Source: Spirochaetia bacterium (GTDB lineage Bacteria; Spirochaetota; Spirochaetia; SZUA-6; Bin103). From it: 64,000 nt of DNA. Position numbers and translations under genes: made by a program. Below are positions 2,065 to 28,983 of this stretch, piece after piece (within the stretch, counting starts at the first letter, position 1; every line of letters begins with the position of its first letter). The stretch is taken from assembly GCA_965262935.1 (NCBI GenBank), contig OZ253572.1:4420042-4484041 (forward strand), in the 5' to 3' direction. Below the pieces are notes generated by a model. That model saw only the letters and a program-made list of their open reading frames with translations. It ran no database searches and was not told the origin of the DNA.

Positions 2065-2652
2065 ATGGCTCGACTCCCAGTGCTCGACATCAATCAGCTC
2101 ACCGACCAACAACGCGCCGTGCTCGACGCGATCAACGCCGGCCCACGTGGCGCCACGGATCCGGGTATCGGCCTGCGCGGTCCATTTGGCGTGTGGGTGC
2201 GGTCGCCAAGCATCGGCATGCCTGCGCAGCAACTCGGTGCCGCTGCCCGGTTCCACACGTCGCTAAACGACCAAGTACGAGAGGTGGCGATCTGCGTCGT
2301 CGGCGCCTACTACCGCGCGAAGTTCGAGTTTGCGATGCATGGTCCAATGGCGGTGGCGGCGGGGGTCGATGCGGCTGCCATCGAGACCATTCGTCTGCGC
2401 GGCACACCGCCGCTGCCCGCCGATCAGGCAGCCAGCCACGAGCTAGCCGTGCAGCTCTTGCGCGACCACCGCATCGACGATGCCACCTACCAGACTGCCG
2501 TCGGCGTGCTGGGCGAAGGCGGCGTCATCGAGCTGGTCAACATCATCGGCTATTACTGCCTGGTCTCGTTGGTCCTGAACGCCTTCGAAGTGCCCCTCCA
2601 GGCGGGCATGACCGACCCGTTCCCGTCGGGAGGCATCGAGAATCTCGAGTGA
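2065..2652 (+). CDS. carboxymuconolactone decarboxylase (AhpD-like) family protein
   Basis: 195-aa ORF. The [25 protein letters not shown] and [19 protein letters not shown] helices are typical of the CMD family. Confidence 0.75.
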
Positions 2653-2781
2653 CACGAGATTGCCGTGTTCGTCGTAATCAAGGATCACACCAGGCTTGTG
2701 CTCGTCGCTCTCCGCGATCGCGGCATTCTCCTTGAGGATCACGATCAACGAGTCTGTCTTGAGGTCATACGTCGCTTTCAT
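2443..2781 (-). CDS. DUF2283 domain protein (putative antitoxin-like partner of DUF4258)
   Basis: [18 protein letters not shown]...[22 protein letters not shown] matches the DUF2283 pattern. The ORF has no stop until 2443, so its tail is antisense to the CMD gene. The true 3' end is uncertain. Confidence 0.6.
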
Positions 2782-2788
2782 GGTTCGT

Positions 2789-2890
2789 TCACGCCTCCCA
2801 GTACTTGGCGACTCGGCTCGTGAGATACACGGCTACCACCTCGTTGGGCACTCGATCGACGTCGAGCGCGATCCGGTCTGATGCGATCAC
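2789..2890 (-). pseudogene. DUF4258-like toxin remnant (C-terminal ~33 codons only)
   Basis: The minus-strand translation [33 protein letters not shown] resembles the ...VITAYKTSKIKKY tail of DUF4258 proteins. It lies directly upstream of the DUF2283 gene. Confidence 0.3.
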
Positions 2891-3419
2891 CGGCGCACGG
2901 CGTCGCAGAACCTATATCGCTAGTGCTGGTTGCGGCTCGTAGCGCCGGACCTCGATCTCATCCTCTCGCGCTTGCGCCTGTACGACGTCGTAGGCCCTTC
3001 GTCTTGGTGATAGTCGACCAATTCAACCGCTTGAGCCCACGATAGCGAGAGCTCCGTATCACCTCCCGAACCGTAATGTGTCAGTCGACACTTGTCAACG
3101 GGGCCGGAGAAGAGAAGCCACGCAGTCCTTTCCCTTCTACGCGGGATGATCGAGTGCCAAGGGATCCACACGTGACGACTCCCGGATCGGGCGCGCGGCC
3201 GTGGGCGGGGTGGGAATACGAAAACGGCAACGGCGGATGACAAGATCAGGCCGCTACGGTCTCACACGCACCGCGCACCGAGGGCACCCGGTCAGGCCGC
3301 GGCCCTGAGCGGAGCGATGCGCGCGCCGGCGTGCATCAGTCCGCCCAACCGGTCCGACCGCTCAGCGAGTGCCAGCGTGACTGAACGCGGTAAGCGGCCC
3401 GTGCTGGAAAAAATCGGTT

Positions 3420-3451
3420 GGAAAACCGGGGGAAAACCGGGGAAAACCGGG
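3420..3451. repeat. tandem GGAAAACCGG(G) x3
   Basis: ggaaaaccggg ggaaaaccgg ggaaaaccgg read directly. It ends 5 nt before the conserved GGGGTTGACAC motif. Confidence 0.9.
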
Positions 3452-3646
3452 CGCAGGGGTTGACACACTTTTTCGCCGTCGTTGCTGGCCCCTGGTGCGC
3501 CTCGGAACCCTGCAATGGTCTGTGCGCCTCCCGTTGTCCGACCGCGTGCTGTTAGCGGTGCCATAGTGCGCCGTGTGGGCGCTGCCAGTGCCCGGTCGAG
3601 GACTTGCAACAATCTGCTATCTCTCAACCGAGTGTATAATTACGGC

Positions 3647-5776
3647 ATGATAAGCGTGACTTGCAGACGACCGTTCAGCGAGCTGGGCGATCAGCAGCTC
3701 CTCGATCAGACCAGGCGTCTGGCCGCCAATCAGCGCTGCATCGAAGTGCACATCCTGGACCATCTCGACGAGATAGACCGCCGCGGTCTTGCGCTGCGGC
3801 GCGGGTTCTCGAGCCTGTTCGACTACGCGGTGCGGGAGTTGCGCTTCACCGACGCGTCCGCGCAGCGGCGCATCCAGACGATGCGGCTGTGCCGGAGGCA
3901 TGGGTGGGTGCGGGCCAGCCTGCAGAGCGGAGAGTTGAGTATGACCTCGGCGGCGCAGTTGGAAACCACCTTTGCCGGTGCCGAGCGGGCCGAGCGCCAG
4001 AGCCGTACCGGGCGCCGGAACGTCGGTCAGGGTCGCTGCGACGATCAGGACCACGATTCCGCTGGCCGAACCAGGCAGCTTGGGCTGCCGGCAGCGCCGA
4101 GCGAAGCGGGTGAGCGAGGGGAGCGCGGGCCCCGATCGGCGCCGGAGCTTGCACCGCCGGCCGAGCAGTGCGCCGGTGATGCGACGGCGGTGAACACGCG
4201 CGTGGCGCCGGTGGCGAGCCACGCTGTTGCGCAGGACTGCGGCGCCGGGCATGCCGGCGCGCTACTGCCGCGGCCGAAATTGAGCGGGAACGCCTCGCTG
4301 TTTCCGGTGCCCTCCTGCGCTCCCGATCCCGATCCCGTTCCCGTTTCCGCCGCGCCGTCATCGGACGAAGGCCATGCTCCACAACTTCTGCCGCCGACGC
4401 ATCTCCCGGCGCTGGCGTCGGCGCCAGCGCCCGTGCCCGCGCCCTTTCTGCCGGTCGCGGCGCCATCGGAGTCGCTGCGGGCCGCTTCGCGCGCGCCGGA
4501 ATCGTCCCAGGATGATCCGTTTGCGCAGCTGTCGCCCGGCCCGGTGTCGGTGGCTCCGCTACTGCACCCGCAACGCCAGCGCGAGCTGATCGAGCAGGCC
4601 GCCGGCATGAGCACCCGCCAGGTCGCCGACCTGCTGGCTGCCGCCGGTCCCGAGGTGGTGCCACCGCGCGACACGCTGCGCGCCGTGGCGCCCGACCGCT
4701 ACACCTTGAAGGTGACCATCGACCAGGAGTGCGAACAGGGACTGCGCCGGCTGAAGGATCTCATGTCGCACCTCGACCCGCGCATGTCGTGGGGCGACCT
4801 GGTGGCGCGCATGGTGCGCGAGGCGGTGGCGTGGCACGACTCGCGCGGCGGCGGTAACGGGCACAGGCGGCGGCGAAGCGCGGGCAGCGCGGGCGCATCA
4901 CCGCGGCGGGCGCCGAACCGGACACATGCCGCCGCGGCGCCGGCGGCCCCGGCTCGGCTCGGAGGCGGCGATACTCCGGCGCCGCGGGGTGACACCGCCG
5001 CTGGCGAAAGGCAGAACCCGATCGTGATGTCGGCCAACGCTGCTGCGGCGCCGCAGTCAGCACCCGCTGCGCTGGTAAATGGCGCCCGCGTAGGTGGTGT
5101 TCCAGCGGCTGCGCCCGACGCCGCTGCTGCGCCGCAGTCAGCGCGCGCCGCACTGTCAGATGGCGCCCGCGCAGGTGGTGTTCCATCGGGCGCGCCCGAC
5201 GCTGCTGCGGCGCCGCAGTGCGCGGGCGGCGCCTCGGCGGATGGCTCGCATGCGGGCGCCGGGGTGCCGGTTTCTCCGGTCGCTACTCCGGCGCCGGAGC
5301 CGGTACTCGGCGTGTTCCCTGACGGCGAACTGCCCGGCGCATCCGGGGCAGCGGGCGGCGCCTCGGCGGATGGTTCCCATGCGGGCGCCGGGGTGCCGGT
5401 CTCGCCGGTCGCCACTCCGGCGCCGGAGCGGGTACTCGGCGTGTCCCCTGACAGCGGACCGAGTGGCGCCTCAGCCGGAGCAGCGGCGCACACGACACGC
5501 GAATCTGTCCACAGCTCCCACCAATCCCCGCCACGGCGCCACATTCCTGCGGCGGTCCGGCGCCACGTTTGGCAACGCGACGGAGGACGCTGCTGTTATC
5601 GTGATCCGCTCACCGGGCGCCGCTGCACCTCTTCCCATCTGCTGCAGATCGACCACCTGCTGCCGGTCGCCCAGGGCGGTGGTCCGGAGCCGTCCAATCT
5701 CAAGTTATCGTGCTTTGCTCATCACCGCCTGCGCCACGGCCACGGACCGGCTCCGGCTCCGGAGCCCCAGATGTAG
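3647..5776 (+). CDS. DUF222-like / HNH endonuclease protein (REP13E12-type), copy 1
   Basis: ORF 3482-5776. The start is set at ATG 3647, 7 nt after TATAAT 3635-3640. The C-terminus WQRDGGRCCY...SSHLLQIDHLLPVAQGGGPEPSNLKLSCFAHHRLRH is an HNH motif. The N-terminus (LDHLDEIDRRGLALRRGFSSLFDY) resembles the N-terminal domain of this family. Confidence 0.8.
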   Translation: MISVTCRRPFSELGDQQLLDQTRRLAANQRCIEVHILDHLDEIDRRGLALRRGFSSLFDYAVRELRFTDASAQRRIQTMRLCRRHGWVRASLQSGELSMTSAAQLETTFAGAERAERQSRTGRRNVGQGRCDDQDHDSAGRTRQLGLPAAPSEAGERGERGPRSAPELAPPAEQCAGDATAVNTRVAPVASHAVAQDCGAGHAGALLPRPKLSGNASLFPVPSCAPDPDPVPVSAAPSSDEGHAPQLLPPTHLPALASAPAPVPAPFLPVAAPSESLRAASRAPESSQDDPFAQLSPGPVSVAPLLHPQRQRELIEQAAGMSTRQVADLLAAAGPEVVPPRDTLRAVAPDRYTLKVTIDQECEQGLRRLKDLMSHLDPRMSWGDLVARMVREAVAWHDSRGGGNGHRRRRSAGSAGASPRRAPNRTHAAAAPAAPARLGGGDTPAPRGDTAAGERQNPIVMSANAAAAPQSAPAALVNGARVGGVPAAAPDAAAAPQSARAALSDGARAGGVPSGAPDAAAAPQCAGGASADGSHAGAGVPVSPVATPAPEPVLGVFPDGELPGASGAAGGASADGSHAGAGVPVSPVATPAPERVLGVSPDSGPSGASAGAAAHTTRESVHSSHQSPPRRHIPAAVRRHVWQRDGGRCCYRDPLTGRRCTSSHLLQIDHLLPVAQGGGPEPSNLKLSCFAHHRLRHGHGPAPAPEPQM
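5036..5220 (+). repeat. in-frame 81-bp tandem repeat (~2.3 copies) inside HNH gene
   Basis: The gctgctgcggcgccgcagtca... unit recurs at ~5036, ~5117 and ~5198. It encodes AAAPQSA.AAL..GAR.GGVP..APD. Confidence 0.8.
5225..5482 (+). repeat. in-frame 129-bp tandem repeat (2 copies) inside HNH gene
   Basis: The ggcggcgcctcggcggatgg... unit starts at 5225 and again at 5354. It encodes GGASADGSHAGAGVPVSPVATPAPE.VLGV.PD twice. Confidence 0.85.
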
Positions 5777-6014
5777 CGCTTCCTCCGCGCTGCTGGCGCG
5801 CAACTCGACTGCGCTGGCCGACGGCTCGCAGGTGGCCCAGCGGGACACACTTCGCATCTCCGCAAGCCGAGCGTGCATCTTCGCTGCCGCATCATCAGAC
5901 CCTGGCCGTGGTCTACCGTCTACGAATTCCTGCCGCTTCCGGCGTTCGGACCCCCGTGGGCGGCCGTGAGCGCCACGGCTTGCCATGCGGCGCCAGTGTG
6001 ATACAACACGGGGC

Positions 6015-7805: not shown

Positions 7806-8852
7806 TCAACCGAGTTCGATACCGAGCTTCGCCGCGGCCTCGGTCATCTGCTTCCAGGTCGGTTCGTCCACGAACACGCCGTCGGCCTCTCGTTGCCCGC
7901 GGTTGCGCGACTCGGGCTCACCCGGCACCAGAATCTCGTCGAATCCTGCCATCAGGGAGGAACTCTTCAGCCACTCCACGAACGCCGCCGTGTCGCGCTT
8001 GAAGTCGTCGGGGGCGATGAATGCCGCGATGTCGAGTGCCATCATGAACACGCCGTTGCCCCAGCGCGTCTGACCGGCGCGGCTGTAGCCGGCCCCGCCA
8101 AGGGCGCCCGACAGCACTTCTACCAGAATCGACAACGCGAAGCCCTTGTGGGCGCTGTCGCCCCCGAACGGAAGGATGGCGCCTCGGGGAGGGCCGTAGA
8201 ACTGCTCGGGGTCGGTAATCGGGCGTCCGTCGGCGTCGAGCGCCCAGCCGTCCGGCATCGGCTCGCCGAGGTTGCGCTTCATCTTGATCTTGCCCTCGGC
8301 GACCACGCTGGAGGTCATGTCGACGACGATCGGCAGCTCGCCGCCGGTCGGCACGCCAAGCGCGATCGGATTGGGCGACATGCGCGGCTGGGCGCCCCCG
8401 AAGGGCACTTGCAGCAGCCCGCCGCCATGGTTGTTGCAGGTCACCAGGCCGATCATGTCGTTGGCCGCGGCCGTCTCCACGTACTCGCCGAGCCGGCCGA
8501 TGTGGCCGCAGTTGAACACCTCGACCACCCCCACCGAGGTCTGCCTCGCCTTCTCGATGGCCAGTGCCATGGCCTGCGTGGCGACCGTCTGGCCGAAGCC
8601 CCACTTGCCGTCGACCACGGCCGAGGCGGGGGCTTCGCGAACCACCTCGATGGTGACGCCCGGCACGAAACCGCCTTGTTCCAGCACGCCGAGGTACTGG
8701 GGCAGGCGCGTGACGCCGTGCGAGTCGTGGCCCATCAGGTTGGAGAGCACCAGCGATCCGGCGATGTGCCGGGCCTCATCGTCAGACAGACCCGCCGCGC
8801 CAAGCAGGCGCTGCGCGTGGGAGGTGAGTTGATCGGGAGTGAAAGTTGGCAT
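7806..8852 (-). CDS. Ldh_2 family (malate/L-lactate/sulfolactate dehydrogenase-type) oxidoreductase
   Basis: The start is set at MPTFTPDQL (ATG 8852). GHDSHGVTRLPQY, NCGHIGRLGEY, SPNPIALGVP and ILPFGGDSAHKGFALS are Ldh_2 signatures. Confidence 0.85.
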   Translation of the reverse strand: MPTFTPDQLTSHAQRLLGAAGLSDDEARHIAGSLVLSNLMGHDSHGVTRLPQYLGVLEQGGFVPGVTIEVVREAPASAVVDGKWGFGQTVATQAMALAIEKARQTSVGVVEVFNCGHIGRLGEYVETAAANDMIGLVTCNNHGGGLLQVPFGGAQPRMSPNPIALGVPTGGELPIVVDMTSSVVAEGKIKMKRNLGEPMPDGWALDADGRPITDPEQFYGPPRGAILPFGGDSAHKGFALSILVEVLSGALGGAGYSRAGQTRWGNGVFMMALDIAAFIAPDDFKRDTAAFVEWLKSSSLMAGFDEILVPGEPESRNRGQREADGVFVDEPTWKQMTEAAAKLGIELG

Positions 8853-8946
8853 GTCAGCCCCGCCATGGTAGCAGACCGGCGCGGGAAATACGAGGATACG
8901 AGGCGACTCACTTGTCGCGGCGCGCGCGGGCAGGTATAGTTCGGGC

Positions 8947-9498
8947 ATGGGAAGCATTGGCGGTAGCACGGCGTGGCGGCGATCACTGGTCGCGCTGGCG
9001 CTTACGACCCTGATTCCCGCGACACTGATGGCAGCCATACCGGAGACAGGAGCAGCGGCGCCCGATTTCGAGTTGCCGAGCGCCGCCGGCGACACCCTCA
9101 CGCTGACCGCCACCCTGGAAGAAAACGCGGTGGTGCTGGTGTTCTACCGCGCCTTCTGGTGAACATACTGCCGGCGTCAGCTCGTCGAGCTGACTGAACA
9201 CTACGCAGAGATCACGGAGCTCGGAGCGGAGGTGCTGGCGATCAGCACCGACGACCTGTCGGGAGCGCATGCGATGGTCGCCAAGGTCGGCATCGAGTTT
9301 CCGGTGCTGTACAACAGCGATACCTCTGTCGTGGACGCCTACGGCGTGTACAACCTGCGCGGCGACAATCTGGCCGCCCCGTCAACGTTCATCATCGATA
9401 CCGAGGGCATCGTGCGCTGGTCGCACATCAGCCGGCGCACCAGCGACCGCCCCAAGACGTCCGAAATCATCAAGCAGCTCAAGAAGCTGAACGAGTAG
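8947..9498 (+). CDS. AhpC/TSA-redoxin (peroxiredoxin-like) protein with in-frame TGA 9160-9162, candidate selenocysteine (UxxC)
   Basis: ORFs 8947-9162 and 9232-9498 share one frame and are separated by a single TGA. Read through, the product is ...APDFELPS...VVLVFYRAFW[TGA]TYCRRQLVEL...LAISTDD...FPVLYNSD...FIIDTEGIVRW. Alternatively it is a nonsense pseudogene. Confidence 0.6.
9176..9194 (+). promoter_or_regulatory. candidate bacterial SECIS hairpin
   Basis: GTCAGCTC-GTC-GAGCTGAC is a perfect 8-bp stem with a G/U-containing apical loop. It starts 13 nt after the in-frame UGA. Confidence 0.4.
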
Positions 9499-9505
9499 CG
9501 CGGCC

Positions 9506-10486
9506 ATGGCCACCACTGAATCACCGATCGCCGGCCGCGACTGGAACGGCATCGTCACCTACCCCGATCCCGCCGTGCAGGTGCACGACCCGCGATTCGC
9601 CCTGATGAGACTCGGCAATGCAGCCGTGGAGCGGCTCTACACCGGCGCGCGCTGGGCCGAGGGCCCGGTGTGGTTCGGCGATCACGACTGCCTGCTGTTC
9701 AGCGACATCCCCAACAACCGCATCCTGCGCTTCGACGCCGCCAGCGGTCAGGTCAGCGAGTTCCGCCGGCCGTCCAGCAACACCAACGGCAACTTCCGCG
9801 ACGCCCAAGGGCGGCTGCTGTCGTGCGAGCACGACACCCGGCGCGTCACCCGTACCGAGCATGACGGTTCGATCACGGTGCTGATCGACCGCTTCGACGG
9901 CAAGCCGCTGAACGGGCCGAACGACCTGTGCACCCACCCCGACGGCTCGATCTGGTTCACCGACCCCGGCTACGGCACCCTGTTTCAGTACGAGGGGCAC
10001 TGGGCCGAGCACGAGTTGCCGGCGCGCGTCTACCGCCTCGATCCCGCTACCGGCGCGGCCACGGTGGCGGTGGACGACATGGTGATGCCCAACGGCATCT
10101 GCTTCACGCCCGACTTCGCCGGGCTGTACGTGGTGGAGACCGGTATCTCGCACCACCCCGGCACCCCACGCGTGATCTACCGCTACGATGTCGCCGGCAA
10201 CCGGACGCGCGCTCAGCGGGTGTTCGTCGACATGAGCCCGGGCAACTCCGACGGCCTGCGCGTCGACATCTACGGCAACGTGTGGGCGGGCGCCGCCGGG
10301 CCGGGAGACAGCTACAACGGGGTGCACTGCTTTGCCCCCGACGGTGAGTTGATCGGTCAGATCCATCTACCCGAGAAGTGCGCCAACCTGTGCTTCGGCG
10401 GCGCCAAGAAGAACCGCCTGTTCATGGCTGCCAGCCAGTCGCTGTACGCGGTGTACCTGGAAACGGCCGGCGCGCAGAGCCCTTAA
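9506..10486 (+). CDS. SMP-30/gluconolactonase/LRE family protein
   Basis: 326-aa ORF. EGPVWF, SDIPNNRILRFD, PNDLCTHPDGSIWFTDPGYG, PNGICFTPD and SDGLRVD are typical lactonase propeller motifs. Confidence 0.85.
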   Translation: MATTESPIAGRDWNGIVTYPDPAVQVHDPRFALMRLGNAAVERLYTGARWAEGPVWFGDHDCLLFSDIPNNRILRFDAASGQVSEFRRPSSNTNGNFRDAQGRLLSCEHDTRRVTRTEHDGSITVLIDRFDGKPLNGPNDLCTHPDGSIWFTDPGYGTLFQYEGHWAEHELPARVYRLDPATGAATVAVDDMVMPNGICFTPDFAGLYVVETGISHHPGTPRVIYRYDVAGNRTRAQRVFVDMSPGNSDGLRVDIYGNVWAGAAGPGDSYNGVHCFAPDGELIGQIHLPEKCANLCFGGAKKNRLFMAASQSLYAVYLETAGAQSP

Positions 10487-24667: not shown

Positions 24668-25541
24668 GTGTTCCCAGGCGCAACCGAGGCACACGCGCTC
24701 CCGCTCGCGACGACGAACTACGAGGCGGATGAGGACGGAACCCTACACGCCGTGCTGCCGTCACGTTGCGTCTACGCCACGGGGGAGCAGACGTGCGCCA
24801 TGTTCGTCGATCACTACCGAAAGCGCAAGACCGGGCCGTGCTACCCGGTGGCGGTGGTGGGGTGCCGTGTGCATGGGATGCCGTGTGCATGGGAAGCGGC
24901 GCTACACGCTGTATCCAGCCGGGCACTATCCGTACGGACGGGTGGCGGTAGTGCCGTACAGCGCAAGCGGAGAACTGTTGTGGGAAGCTGACAGTGGCGG
25001 GCCGGCGTGGCAGGCGACGCTGTTCGGGGCGGCGCAGGATGCCGCGCAAGGGCAGATGTGGCGGTCCGAGCAGAACTGGTGGCAACGCTGGGATGCGCGT
25101 CGGCGGCGAACCCAAGGACGGCGGTTGGAGATGGCCGGACGGCTGACCGGGGTCAGTGGGGGATTGAAGGAGCGGGAGCGAGAGCAGATCGCGACGCGGT
25201 TGGGAGTGGCGACCATGACCGTGCTGTCGGGCGCGCACCGCTGGGGGCGCAGTTGGCAGAGCCGCGGGGCAGCGATCGTGGCGGTGCTGGTGGCGCTGGC
25301 CTGCAGCGCGACGCTGGGGGACCGCATGGGTGCCGCTGGTGCGGTCAGCGATCTGTGGGGGCCGCCGCGTCCGCGGCTGGTGGCGCGCTGGGAGCAGGCC
25401 GGCAAGAGCTGGCTGGTGGCCGCGAGCGGCGGTTCCGAAGCGCGGGAACAGGGCGCTGCCGGCAGCCATCGGGGACGGGCACCGCCGGCCACGAAAGCGC
25501 CCGTTCGAACCGTCTCGGGCAGCGCTACGGTAGGCTCATGA
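24668..25541 (+). pseudogene. transposon-associated Cys-rich hypothetical gene, frameshifted by a 16-bp tandem duplication
   Basis: ORFs 24590-24991 and 24729-25541 join if one copy of TGCCGTGTGCATGGGA (24863-24878 and 24879-24894) is removed. The stop overlaps the transposase ATG (ATGA at 25538-25541). The start is uncertain. Confidence 0.45.
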
Positions 25542-26947
25542 ATGATTCATCGCGTCCCCCGTTACCGGTCTCGGCTACCGCGCTGCTGCGCTACTCGGTG
25601 GTCGCCGAGGTGGAGGCCCTGGTGCTGCGCGGGTGGCCCGCGGGAGCTGCGGTACGCCACGTTGCCGGCGCCGACCGTGTCGACCTGGACGGTCGCCTGG
25701 TGCGCATCAGCGTGCGTACCCTGCAACGCTGGCGCGCGGCCTGGGCGAGCGGCAAGCTCGCCGCCCTGGAGCCGCGGCAGCGCACCCGCACCACGACCTC
25801 ACAGGCACTGAGCGTAGAGCTGGTCGCCTTCCTGCGCACCGAGAAGCGGTGTGATCCGCGCGCCTCGGCGCCGGAACTGGTGCGCCGCGCACGCGAACGC
25901 GGCATCGTCCCGGTCGACCAGAAGATCGATCGCACCAGCGTGTGGCGCGCGTGCCGGCGGATGGGCCTGCCGACGCGGCAGCGACCGCACAAGCGTGAGG
26001 GCGACACGCGGCGCTGGCAGTATGCCGAGCGCATGCAGTGCGTGCTTGCCGACGGCAAGCATTTCCGCGCCGGCGCGGCGCGTCTGCGCCGAGTGGCGCT
26101 GTTCTTCATCGACGATGCCACGCGCTACGGCCTGCAGGTGCGGGTGGGCACCGCGGAGTCCAGCGAGCTGTTCCTGCGCGCCCTCTACCAGATGGTCATG
26201 CGGCACGGCTTGGCTGACTTGTTCTTCCTCGACAAAGGACCGGGCTTCAACTCCCACGATACCAAGGCCGTGGTCCAGGGCGGCCTGGGCGCGTTGCTGA
26301 TCCACGGCACCACCAGGTATCCGCAAGGCCACGGCGCCATCGAACGCTTCAACCGCACCGCTTACGATCAGGTGCTGCGTTCCCTCGATGGCGCCGCCGA
26401 CGTGGACCCCGCCTGCGATGCGCTCACGCTACGCCTGAACCACTTCCTGGAGCGCTACAACGACACCCCGCACGAGACCCTGGGCAAGGATATCACCCCG
26501 CGCCAGCGCTGGGAGCAAGGACGGGGTCTGCGCTTCCCCACCGACGACGCCGATCTGTACCGCCGCTTCGTGGTGCGCGCCATGCACAAGGTTTCCAACG
26601 ATCACGTCATCAAGGCCGACGGTCGGTTGTGGGAAGCGCCGCGCCGCAGCGCAGCCAGTTGGGTCGAGGTGGCGCGCCACGTGCTCGACGGTCGGCTGTG
26701 GGTTCAGCACCAGGGGCGCATGATCGAGCTCGCCGAGGTGGATCCGCAGGCCAACGCGACCGCGCCGCGCGGCTCCGGCAACACGCCGCAACCGACCGCC
26801 GGCAAGGACGGCGACGAACTGCCTGCCACCGCGGCCGGCATCGCCTACGCCAACGACCTGCGCCCGCTGGTCGACCCCGAGGGCGGCTATAGCGATCCGC
26901 ACGACGACCAACACGACGACCAACACGACCAGGAGCAGCACCCATGA
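25538..26947 (+). CDS. DDE (rve-type) transposase, Mu/Tn552/TniA-like
   Basis: ORF 25007-26947, start set at ATG 25538 (MNDSSRPP). N-terminal HTH region. DDE core ...VLADGKHF..., FFIDDATRY, FLDKGPGFNSHD and YPQGHGAIERFNRT. Confidence 0.85.
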   Translation: MNDSSRPPLPVSATALLRYSVVAEVEALVLRGWPAGAAVRHVAGADRVDLDGRLVRISVRTLQRWRAAWASGKLAALEPRQRTRTTTSQALSVELVAFLRTEKRCDPRASAPELVRRARERGIVPVDQKIDRTSVWRACRRMGLPTRQRPHKREGDTRRWQYAERMQCVLADGKHFRAGAARLRRVALFFIDDATRYGLQVRVGTAESSELFLRALYQMVMRHGLADLFFLDKGPGFNSHDTKAVVQGGLGALLIHGTTRYPQGHGAIERFNRTAYDQVLRSLDGAADVDPACDALTLRLNHFLERYNDTPHETLGKDITPRQRWEQGRGLRFPTDDADLYRRFVVRAMHKVSNDHVIKADGRLWEAPRRSAASWVEVARHVLDGRLWVQHQGRMIELAEVDPQANATAPRGSGNTPQPTAGKDGDELPATAAGIAYANDLRPLVDPEGGYSDPHDDQHDDQHDQEQHP

Positions 26948-27747
26948 GCCACGACCTCAGCCCCCTGGGCTTTCGCAAGACCCCCTTTACCCGCGAGTTG
27001 ACCGTGCGCGAGCGCTTCCCGCTCGATCCGCAGGCACAGGTCGCCGCCGCGCTCACCGAGGCGGTGCAGGAGCGCATGAGCGCCGCCCTCATCGCTCCCG
27101 CCGGCACCGGCAAGACCGTCGCCTTGCGCATGCTCGTCGCCGCTCTGCCGGAAACACGCTTCCAGGTCCATTACGTCAAGGTGACCGGCCTCTCCAAGCG
27201 TGACCTGTGCAAGGAAATCGCCGTCGCCTGCGGCCTCTCGCCCACCGGCATCTATCCCGCTCTGGTGCGCAAGCTGCAGGACGCTTTCGCACATACCACC
27301 AGCGACGGTATGCGGCCGGTCATCCTGCTCGACGAAGCCCATGACCTGCGCCCCGAATCGTTGGCCATGTTGAGGGTCCTCACCAACTTCGAAATGGACA
27401 GTCGCCTCGTCGTGTCCCTCGTGCTCGCCGGCCAGCCACACCTGAGACTGCTCCTCCGGCACCCCGAACAAGCCGCCATCGCGCACCGCCTGGCGCATTA
27501 CGCCGAGTTGCGCCTGCTGTCTCGTGATGAGACCCGCGCCTACCTCGAACACCGCTGCACCCTCGCCGGCGCTCGCACCAATCCCTTCGACGGCGACGCT
27601 CAGGAAACCATCTTCGAAATGAGCCGCGGCAACCTGCGCGCTATCGACCGCTTGGCCTTGGCGGCCCTGCACCTCGCCGCCAAGTCTTCCCACACCACCG
27701 TCAGTTCCGGCGACGTGATCGCCGCTCGCAAGTCGCTGTGGCCATGA
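26944..27747 (+). CDS. AAA ATPase transposition helper (TniB/MuB/ExeA-like)
   Basis: The ATG overlaps the transposase stop. Walker A APAGTGKTV, Walker B VILLDEAHDL, plus LVLAGQPHL and SRGNLRAIDRL. Confidence 0.8.
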   Translation: MSHDLSPLGFRKTPFTRELTVRERFPLDPQAQVAAALTEAVQERMSAALIAPAGTGKTVALRMLVAALPETRFQVHYVKVTGLSKRDLCKEIAVACGLSPTGIYPALVRKLQDAFAHTTSDGMRPVILLDEAHDLRPESLAMLRVLTNFEMDSRLVVSLVLAGQPHLRLLLRHPEQAAIAHRLAHYAELRLLSRDETRAYLEHRCTLAGARTNPFDGDAQETIFEMSRGNLRAIDRLALAALHLAAKSSHTTVSSGDVIAARKSLWP

Positions 27748-28679
27748 CCAATCCGCTGCCCACCGTTCCCGTCCATGCCATCGATCCCCAACCCGACGCT
27801 CCCCAGTGGTTGGTGCGCGACCTCTGGACCACCGCCGCCGTCGGGGTTGTCGGCGGCAGCCCCAAGGTTGGCAAATCGTGGTTTGGCCTCGATCTCGCCG
27901 TCTCGGTCGCGTCCGGCACCCCCGCCCTCGGGCGCTTCCCGGTCGACGCCACCGGACCCGCCCTGGTGTATCTCGCCGAGGATGCTCTGCCCCGCGTCCG
28001 TGACCGTGTCGCCCACTTGTGCCGCCACCGCGGCCTCGATCTGTCCCGCCTCGACCTGCAGGTCGTCACTGCCGACCGGTTACGCCTCGATACCGAACGC
28101 GACCAACTCGCTCTCGACCAGACCGTGCAACGGATCCGCCCGGCACTACTGCTGTTGGACCCCCTGGTCCGACTTCATTCTCTCGACGAAAACAGCGCTT
28201 CAGACATCTCTTCTCTGCTCGCCTTTCTGCGCGCCATCAACCGCCGCCATCAACTCGCTCTGGTCCTCGTCCACCACATGGCCAAGCGCTCCAGGCGCAA
28301 TCTCGGCCAGTCCCTGCGCGGCTCTTCCGATCTCCATGCCTGGACCGACTCCGCCTGCTATCTCGTGCGGCGCCCCGACGACCGTCTGCAACTCACCGTC
28401 GAGCACCGCTCCGCTCCCGCTCCCGACCCCCTCCTGCTGCGCCTCTCAGGCGGCGGCGACCAGCCTCTCTCGCTGCTCGTCGACAGCGCCGACGCCCCGC
28501 CGCCCCCGCTCGCCGAGGCGGTCCGCGCCGCTCTCCGCAGCGCCGGCCAGCCGCTCTCCAGGACCGTCCTGCGCCAACGCCTGCGCATCAACAACGCTCG
28601 TCTCGGGGTCGCCCTCCAAACTCTCCAACAACGCGGCCTCGCCGTCCGCAGCCCCAACGGCTGGCACCTGCCGTCATGA
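27738..28679 (+). CDS. AAA_25 / RecA-like (RepA-type) ATPase with C-terminal winged-helix
   Basis: Overlaps the preceding gene by 10 nt. Walker A GGSPKVGKSW, Walker B LLLLDPLVRLH, LVLVHHMAK. The C-terminal LSRTVLRQRLRINNARLGVALQTLQQRGLA is wHTH-like. Confidence 0.7.
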   Translation: MAMTNPLPTVPVHAIDPQPDAPQWLVRDLWTTAAVGVVGGSPKVGKSWFGLDLAVSVASGTPALGRFPVDATGPALVYLAEDALPRVRDRVAHLCRHRGLDLSRLDLQVVTADRLRLDTERDQLALDQTVQRIRPALLLLDPLVRLHSLDENSASDISSLLAFLRAINRRHQLALVLVHHMAKRSRRNLGQSLRGSSDLHAWTDSACYLVRRPDDRLQLTVEHRSAPAPDPLLLRLSGGGDQPLSLLVDSADAPPPPLAEAVRAALRSAGQPLSRTVLRQRLRINNARLGVALQTLQQRGLAVRSPNGWHLPS

Positions 28680-28768: not shown

Positions 28769-28983
28769 ACCACCGCCACACTCCGCGTCATCTATCCTGC
28801 AACCAACCTCGGCCCGGGGCGCGCAACGCAACAGCTAAATCGCCCACTGGCGATCCTTCTTCATCGGAGTGCTTCAGTGTAATTCGTTACCTCCCTGCAC
28901 CGCTCCGACTGCTTCCGGCTGGAGCGACAGTTGCCGGGCGGGATTCGCACCCGCTGGGATACAGCGCCTTTCCACGGCGCACG

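Follow-up and report, generated by a model that had tools for sequence, protein, structure and literature searches.

A conserved in-frame TGA and a covarying downstream hairpin in a probable UxxC selenoprotein gene of the AhpC/TSA redoxin family

Peroxiredoxin (Prx)-like proteins with selenocysteine (Sec, U) in a UxxC motif have been predicted computationally among bacterial selenoproteins (PMC1088965; PMC2398784; PMC13188914). A UxxC "Prx-like protein" was counted among the known selenoprotein families in the 2005 Sargasso Sea survey (PMC1088965), Prx-like 1 (pfam00578, UxxC) was represented by 225 sequences in the Global Ocean Sampling (GOS) survey (PMC2398784) and a 2026 review lists the entry "Prx-like thiol:disulfide oxidoreductase, PF00578, UxxC/UxxU" (PMC13188914). 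The bacterial Sec insertion sequence (SECIS) is modeled as a hairpin with an apical loop of 3–9 nt, G in the first two loop positions (usually followed by G or U), a stem of 4–16 bp, a distance of 16–37 nt from the UGA to the loop and a minimum free energy (MFE) of −7.5 kcal/mol or lower (PMC13188914, Fig. 2). On the tRNA side, tRNA-Sec has been reported in Chloroflexi, including the 8/4 type, and oddly shaped tRNA-Sec-like tRNAs have been reported from bacterial genomes and metagenomes (PMC5389517). This report describes a candidate gene of the UxxC kind in a 64,000-nucleotide stretch of contig OZ253572.1 (positions 4,420,042 to 4,484,041; assembly GCA_965262935.1, labeled Spirochaetia bacterium), referred to here as the window.

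The redoxin gene occupies positions 8947–9498 of the window on the forward strand as one continuous frame whose sole internal stop is the TGA at 9160–9162, and which terminates at TAG 9496–9498. The read-through translation around the TGA is ...VVLVFYRAFW*TYCRRQLVEL... (flanks ...NAVVLVFYRAFW*TYCRRQLVELTEHY...), so written that the motif of the protein becomes FYRAFW-U-TY-C. The region is almost certainly one intact gene for a 183-residue Sec-containing thiol-disulfide oxidoreductase, and comparison with its relatives makes it very probable that the gene is a genuine Sec-decoding one. With the Prx-like UxxC selenoproteins it shares the AhpC/TSA domain (PF00578) and a thioredoxin-like U-x-x-C that replaces the T-x-x-C/U of true peroxiredoxins (PMC1088965), as well as the pairing of Sec with the first Cys of CxxC homologs and a putative SECIS just downstream of the UGA.

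A preliminary description, made from the letters of the window, had pointed out that the open reading frames (ORFs) 8947–9162 and 9232–9498 share a frame with only the TGA 9160–9162 between them, and that the read-through product would be a continuous AhpC/TSA redoxin. The translation agrees with the shared frame; the second ORF does lie in it, but its supposed start is merely an internal GTG picked by the gene caller, the frame being open from 9163 onward. The continuity of the product is likewise borne out by Pfam. With Cys substituted at the TGA, the read-through product matches AhpC-TSA (PF00578) at 7.2e-32 (110 bits against a cutoff of 26) across residues 35–158 and Redoxin at 2e-22, and because the AhpC-TSA match covers residues on both sides, the domain spans the TGA. 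The coding sequence (CDS) is collinear with its orthologs at about 50–84% identity, with no frameshifts.

This continuity bears on the possibility that the region holds two small genes, one for a 71-residue exported peptide ending at the TGA and another for an 88–112-residue C-terminal protein with an internal start, as it is indeed split by the gene calls of most assemblies seen. Neither half, however, amounts to a complete fold, since the AhpC/TSA domain and the predicted beta-sheet both cross the TGA; the redox motif would be severed, and the internal starts chosen by the callers vary among orthologs. Two separate genes are thus given hardly any credence. In a 5.8-billion-sequence database the closest proteins are gene calls of about 100–120 residues, of which P0002–P0005, P0007, and P0008 begin 1 to about 22 codons past the TGA and P0006 stops exactly at the TGA codon (...FYRAFW), while the Joint Genome Institute (JGI) call P0001 reads the codon as W. 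Standard callers had been expected to split or truncate the gene, and nearly every public call seen does so, that one misreading apart. In the JGI loci concerned (L003/L004, JGI 3300064085) the TGA is rendered as Trp (FYRAFWWPYC), presumably through an alternative translation table applied to a 1.3-kb contig, and P0001 is consequently a full-length but wrong database protein.

The TGA is a conserved character of the family. It is present at the aligned codon in all nine distinct closest orthologs whose DNA was examined (about 50–84% protein identity), none of which shows any further interruption. A species-level scan with one genome per species (GTDB representatives) yielded 80 loci, 60 with the TGA form and 15 with a TGC/TGT form. 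Altogether 126 distinct TGA-bearing copies were collected from at least 60 genomes ranging from 42 to 71% GC; the preliminary description had asked whether relatives carry the TGA together with a hairpin, and a stem at a fixed offset accompanies it in 112 of these 126. The carriers comprise four "Spirochaetia bacterium" metagenome-assembled genomes (MAGs), which are the nearest relatives (86–90% nucleotide identity, syntenic with the window), and about 55 Dehalococcoidia/Chloroflexota/SAR202 MAGs. The "Spirochaetia bacterium" label on these four loci (L017–L020; CBDBOV010000003.1, OZ242313.1, OZ251575.1, OZ241863.1) looks doubtful, all other carriers of the Sec form being Chloroflexota/Dehalococcoidia. 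Among the 60 TGA-form genomes, three tandem copies occur in 28, two in 9 and a single copy in 23. In the triplicated loci (e.g., L058 at 9504/10109/10697, L036, L037, L048, L050 and 23 more) the paralogs are spaced about 590 bp apart, and every one of them has an in-frame TGA, a hairpin and a leader resembling that of a lipoprotein.

The more distant Cys forms, with motifs such as LVFYRGFW-C-PY-C, occur in Blastocatellia, Gemmatimonadales, Bacteroidia and others. HMMER, run exhaustively against 1.8 billion representatives with P0001 as query, itself 54% identical to the window protein, retrieved a CxxC homolog with FYRAFW-C-TN-C (52% identical to P0001) and many homologs with FYRGxW-C-Px-C. 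The TGA therefore pairs with the first Cys of the CxxC motif (FYR[AG]xW-C-xx-C), as had been proposed from the window, and since it aligns in this way the standard Sec/Cys pairing is found at this codon.

The codon itself is authentic by all assemblies available. An identical 2981-bp locus including the TGA occurs in three independent long-read assemblies (27x, 27x, and 39x according to their contig names), with no mismatch over the gene, and a short-read assembly that differs at three other positions in the gene keeps the TGA, which is thus present in four assemblies of four. A sequencing or assembly error for TGC, TGT or TGG, which has nothing but its prior probability in its favor, is for these reasons the least probable explanation of all. 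Pairwise ratios of nonsynonymous to synonymous substitution rates (dN/dS) are mostly about 0.1–0.5, whether taken over the 34 codons before the TGA or the 124 codons after it; the comparison of the window with the relative L001 gives 0.10 upstream and 0.24 downstream. These values indicate that purifying selection is acting on both halves of the gene.

The same observations decide the question of whether the locus is a pseudogene, that is, a former CxxC redoxin struck by a TGC-to-TGA nonsense mutation, which the preliminary description had held to be a real alternative in a pseudogene-rich window. One base change would be enough, and mobile-element-like genes and a group II intron fragment do occur in the window. 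Against this stand the recurrence of the same TGA in all 126 copies over the whole GC range, the lack of a second lesion in any copy, the low dN/dS downstream of the TGA, the covariation of the hairpin and the conservation of the promoter and start codon; no overlapping gene on either strand is there to explain the downstream conservation. The nonsense mutation is effectively refuted and the pseudogene reading has become very improbable. Neither does the window look rich in pseudogenes, as a six-frame scan of it found no second place where one frame is broken between two pieces of coding-like composition. A genome-wide reassignment of TGA (genetic code 4 or 25) was also considered and is ruled out, since TGA terminates 23 of the 43 ORFs in the window with the high third-position GC (GC3) of coding sequence. 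Taken together, the conserved TGA, the dN/dS below 1, the independent assemblies and the ordinary use of TGA as a stop exclude a pseudogene, a read error and an alternative code.

The second line of evidence is the hairpin. As described from the window alone, a perfect 8-bp stem begins 13 nt past the TGA and closes a GUC loop; it is made up of the stem arm GTCAGCTC (9176–9183), the loop GTC (9184–9186) and the return arm GAGCTGAC (9187–9194). The UGA-to-loop spacing is 21 nt and the hairpin alone folds at −11.3 kcal/mol, so that loop, stem length, spacing and energy all agree with the published bacterial SECIS model, as the preliminary description had expected of spacing and loop. In a single sequence such a hairpin is weak evidence, and its weight comes from conservation and covariation in relatives. 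The stem counted above (5 bp or more at the same offset) is rare among the Cys copies (2 of 15), and the 14 remaining Sec copies have a version with one mismatch; paralogs of the PYCRAQLGDL type have a mismatch in the stem. Over an alignment of 114 distinct sequences, the share of cells that pair is 81%, falling to 11–45% when the partner columns are slid, and the covariation score was reached by none of 500 shuffles. The most telling pair, 21–31, joins base 3 of a Gln codon with base 1 of a Leu codon, where both bases can be changed synonymously: it is A-U in 52 sequences, G-C in 40, G-U in 21 and mismatched in one (n = 114), corresponding to the codon combinations CAA/UUG (52) and CAG/CUG (40), and in 6 of 15 Cys forms it is an A-C mismatch. 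A second covarying stem pair is G-C in 83, U-A in 13 and C-G in 2, with amino-acid changes alongside.

The mechanism proposed on this basis is that the UGA at 9160–9162 is decoded as Sec, with the hairpin at 9176–9194, inside the CDS, serving as a bacterial SECIS: it would recruit SelB-GTP-Sec-tRNA(Sec) to the oncoming ribosome, so that the UGA would be read as Sec and not as a stop. Read-through without Sec, either as Cys through a tRNA-Sec-like tRNA and SelB or as Trp, Cys or Gly through near-cognate or suppressor tRNAs, would instead yield an ordinary CxxC or WxxC redoxin. This could draw on the W that the JGI pipeline placed at the codon in P0001 and on the reports of tRNA-Sec-like tRNAs of unusual shape in bacteria (PMC5389517). 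But that W is most simply the caller's choice of translation table for a short contig, the ordinary use of TGA as a stop in the window speaks against codes 4 and 25, the position aligns with a redox Cys in a classic Sec/Cys pair, and a SECIS-type hairpin that goes with the TGA form and not with the Cys forms is the signature of SelB-dependent decoding. Non-Sec read-through is accordingly regarded as improbable, if somewhat less so than the other explanations discussed so far.

A number of observations weigh against Sec decoding or against the function proposed for the product. Neither the window nor the roughly 1.5 Mb of related loci yielded genes for tRNA-Sec, selA, selB or selD, none of which was expected there. 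ARAGORN detected no tRNA-Sec in the window and 71 related loci, though it may miss the 8/4 type of Chloroflexi (PMC5389517), and a six-frame search of the 1.5 Mb for the motifs of SelD (G[C/U]GxK), SelA (GDKLLGGPQ) and SelB-type GTPases (GHVDHGKT) gave one chance match and no genes. As to the hairpin, the 61-nt fold of 9155–9215 is not separable from shuffled sequences (z = −0.66), 4.2% of the TGA triplets in the window precede an equally long SECIS-compatible stem, and at a permissive threshold no SECIS family of Rfam matches it within 9100–9300. The six core pairs of the stem coincide with codons of the conserved Q-L-x-E-L, so that sequence conservation is partly protein-driven, and one Cys form (L085, QLKEL) makes a similar 6-bp stem. 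With respect to function, the likely role of the product as a selenol/thiol-disulfide oxidoreductase cycling through a Sec72-Cys75 selenylsulfide is deduced from motifs only, and neighborhood clustering over at least 60 loci revealed no conserved partner (e.g., CcdA/DsbD), only the housekeeping synteny of close relatives. The one Rfam hit below threshold, a GA-cis RNA at 9224–9289 (+) inside the CDS, was rejected as probably due to chance (25.9 bits against a gathering threshold of 34.7).

The product of the probable Sec-decoding gene appears to combine features of two groups of redox proteins. In an AlphaFold2 model of the ortholog P0001 (predicted local distance difference test score, pLDDT, 95) the Sec position directly precedes the helix 41–52, whose first turn contains the Cys. 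Compared by Foldseek, its top matches are the Bcp4 and AhpE peroxiredoxins (template modeling (TM) scores of 0.92–0.93), and sequence searching with phmmer retrieves both Prx-like proteins and ResA (3c73). When aligned with true peroxiredoxins, Sec72 takes the place of the Thr in PxxxTxxC and Cys75 lines up with the peroxidatic Cys, while Arg replaces the Prx Pro and Pro145 replaces the catalytic Arg; the Pro145 column is not invariant, being Thr in the ortholog L012. In view of the placement of Sec and Cys, the absence of the Prx Pro, Thr and Arg and the presence of a TlpA-like Pro, the product is a peroxiredoxin scaffold with a thioredoxin-type active site. Sec72 would lie just ahead of the helix bearing Cys75 (U-T-Y-C), with Pro at the TlpA/ResA cis-Pro place, and the pair would cycle as a selenylsulfide in the manner of TlpA/ResA-type reductases.

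The N-terminus had been noted as resembling an export signal, and this character extends over the family: ahead of the domain, 120 of 130 Sec copies and 14 of 15 Cys copies carry a hydrophobic segment, and in many relatives there is a lipobox-like ...A(C/G)C with Pro/Thr-rich linkers after it. In the window protein the segment reads WRR-SLVALALTTLIPATLMA, with a best 15-residue Kyte-Doolittle window of 2.09. Such a signal (a lipoprotein signal in many relatives) would put the protein outside the cytoplasmic membrane, and the evidence points to an extracytoplasmic product, either membrane-tethered or secreted. The coordinates of these features are collected in Table 1.

Table 1. Features of the redoxin gene and its upstream region in the window (positions are those of the window).
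Feature	Positions	Strand	Details	Basis
Promoter-like site	8912..8940	+	−35 TTGTCG (8912–8917), 17-nt spacer, −10 TATAGT (8935–8940)	Consensus scan
Complete predicted selenoprotein CDS	8947..9498	+	183 codons + TAG; Met1...Sec72 (TGA)...Cys75...Glu183	
Predicted N-terminal export signal/membrane anchor	8947..9045	+	Residues 1–33: MGSIGGSTAWRR-SLVALALTTLIPATLMA-AIPE	Hydrophobicity; cleavage and location predicted
In-frame TGA, probable Sec codon	9160..9162	+	Residue 72, first position of U-x-x-C	Conserved in relatives
TGC, Cys75	9169..9171	+	Putative resolving Cys of U-x-x-C	Invariant in ortholog alignment; aligns with Prx peroxidatic Cys
Putative SECIS hairpin	9176..9194	+	8-bp stem, GUC apical loop	Overlaps codons R77–T83 (RQLVELT)
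CCG, Pro145	9379..9381	+	In ...AAPSTFIID...	TlpA/ResA cis-Pro column = Prx catalytic Arg column

Upstream of the gene, the promoter consensus scan returned one site against 0.1 expected, with a −10 hexamer ending 6 nt short of the ATG at 8947. Both hexamers are kept in eight relatives together with a start codon 6–7 nt past the −10, while the other upstream sequence diverges, and the aligned upstream regions of L001, L005, L009, and L017–L020 with window 8912–8949 contain the −35/−10 pair and no Shine-Dalgarno sequence. Because the hexamers are conserved at this distance from the ATG, the start codon is fixed at 8947; the arrangement suggests that the redoxin mRNA is leaderless. The gene call of L001 begins 32 codons too far upstream.

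The gene diverges from an Ldh_2 gene (7806–8852, −). On its other side, 7 nt away, begins an SGL/gluconolactonase-like gene (9506–10486), with transketolase-like and aminotransferase genes beyond it; the adjacency of the redoxin and SGL genes is limited to near relatives. In the locus L016 (2524–6089) about 0.8 kb separates the redoxin from a cytochrome c oxidase operon (COX1–COX4), a single case that recalls the oxidase-maturation role of TlpA. Elsewhere in the window, about 3.3–4.9 kb of the segment 1083–5960 (especially 2650–5960) are without counterpart in the syntenic L017 and L018; local GC there rises as high as 75%, coding-like GC3 is seen in none of the ORFs and Pfam matches none of the longest, and at the equivalent place L001 carries a GH116 glycosidase gene, so the segment may be a decayed or replaced one. 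Positions 25007–28679 (+) contain the gene for a 646-residue protein with weak, sub-cutoff helix-turn-helix (HTH) matches and, after it, ATPase genes of the AAA_22 and AAA_25 types; the trio resembles a transposon or mobile element. Beside it, a group II intron D1–D4 fragment (Rfam RF02003, 56.6 bits) lies at 28819–28956 (−), with no intron-encoded protein found nearby.

The consequences for annotation are practical. Through split or mistranslated calls the gene is missing from functional and selenoproteome inventories, and so are over 100 copies spread across 60 or more species-level genomes. The findings indicate that the high-GC lineage of the window and many Dehalococcoidia/SAR202-type bacteria probably decode Sec, and that a selenol redox center is likely to be placed outside the cytoplasmic membrane, often in triplicate. 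They do not change what is known of how Sec is encoded, and Prx-like UxxC proteins have been cataloged since the first metagenomic selenoproteome surveys. The sequences form a clade centred on Chloroflexota, predicted to be exported and often present in tandem triplicate, and no curated model covers it. One may go further and regard them as a distinct subfamily of Chloroflexota-wide, cell-surface Sec oxidoreductases of the Prx fold, signal-anchored or lipoproteins with Pro/Thr-rich linkers, with three tandem UGA paralogs in many Dehalococcoidia/SAR202-type genomes, an extracytoplasmic role new to selenoproteins and a SECIS locked in the QL(V/G)EL codons; this wider proposal is put forward tentatively and is considered rather doubtful. 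Were it true, the proteins might, for example, deal with external oxidants or disulfides through a selenol, or take part in the maturation of respiratory enzymes.

Among known systems, the extracytoplasmic TlpA/ResA/CcmG(DsbE) reductases share with the window protein a W-C/U-x-x-C at the N-terminus of a helix and, in the alignment, a Pro in the cis-Pro loop column; they are membrane-anchored or exported, and the window protein is predicted to be so. ResA aligns over domain residues 1–119 at about 1e-10. The window protein differs in having a fold nearer to Bcp/AhpE and a Sec nucleophile instead of Cys, and it stays under the cutoffs of the curated hidden Markov models (HMMs) for ResA (60.7 against 170), DsbE (30.1 against 123) and TlpA (26.2 against 230). 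Cytochrome-maturation genes were not found near the redoxin in the loci, save the cytochrome oxidase genes beside the ortholog L016.

PrxU (T-x-x-U), BCP/PrxQ, and AhpE have the same fold and belong to the same Pfam family, but in the window protein Sec stands three residues earlier, in the Thr column, and the alignment shows neither the peroxiredoxin PxxxT/SxxC(U) motif nor the catalytic Arg. Scores for PrxU (46.7 against 270), BCP (46.5 against 140) and AhpC (45 against 272) are again below the curated cutoffs. Since Sec is shifted, the Prx Pro, Thr and Arg are absent and PrxU is not reached, a Prx-type peroxidase mechanism is unlikely.

The best-scoring NCBIfam model is NF040769, for SelL-related redox proteins, which we take to be related to the eukaryotic/aquatic SelL family with UxxU. 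It shares the Prx-like scaffold and a CxxC-type motif with the window protein, but the match (74.6 bits) lies below the cutoff of 120 and covers residues 38–133 only, and the motif here is UxxC, not UxxU.

The hairpin resembles the bSECISearch consensus, whose archetype is E. coli fdhF, in being intragenic, in opening its small apical loop with G and then U, and in its spacing (21 nt, for 16–37), stem (8 bp, for 4–16) and MFE (below −7.5 kcal/mol). It differs by its minimal 3-nt loop (5 nt in many paralogs), the lack of a bulged U and a stem core fixed by the codons of Q-L-x-E-L.

The window gene thus fits, in each of the features described, the known Prx-like UxxC kind of selenoprotein, of which WP_010940744.1 is a published representative. 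From the proteins described under that name, its clade differs in being centred on Chloroflexota, in its predicted export signal or lipoprotein anchor and in the frequent presence of two or three tandem copies, and the window protein scores below the cutoff of every curated NCBIfam selenoprotein model.

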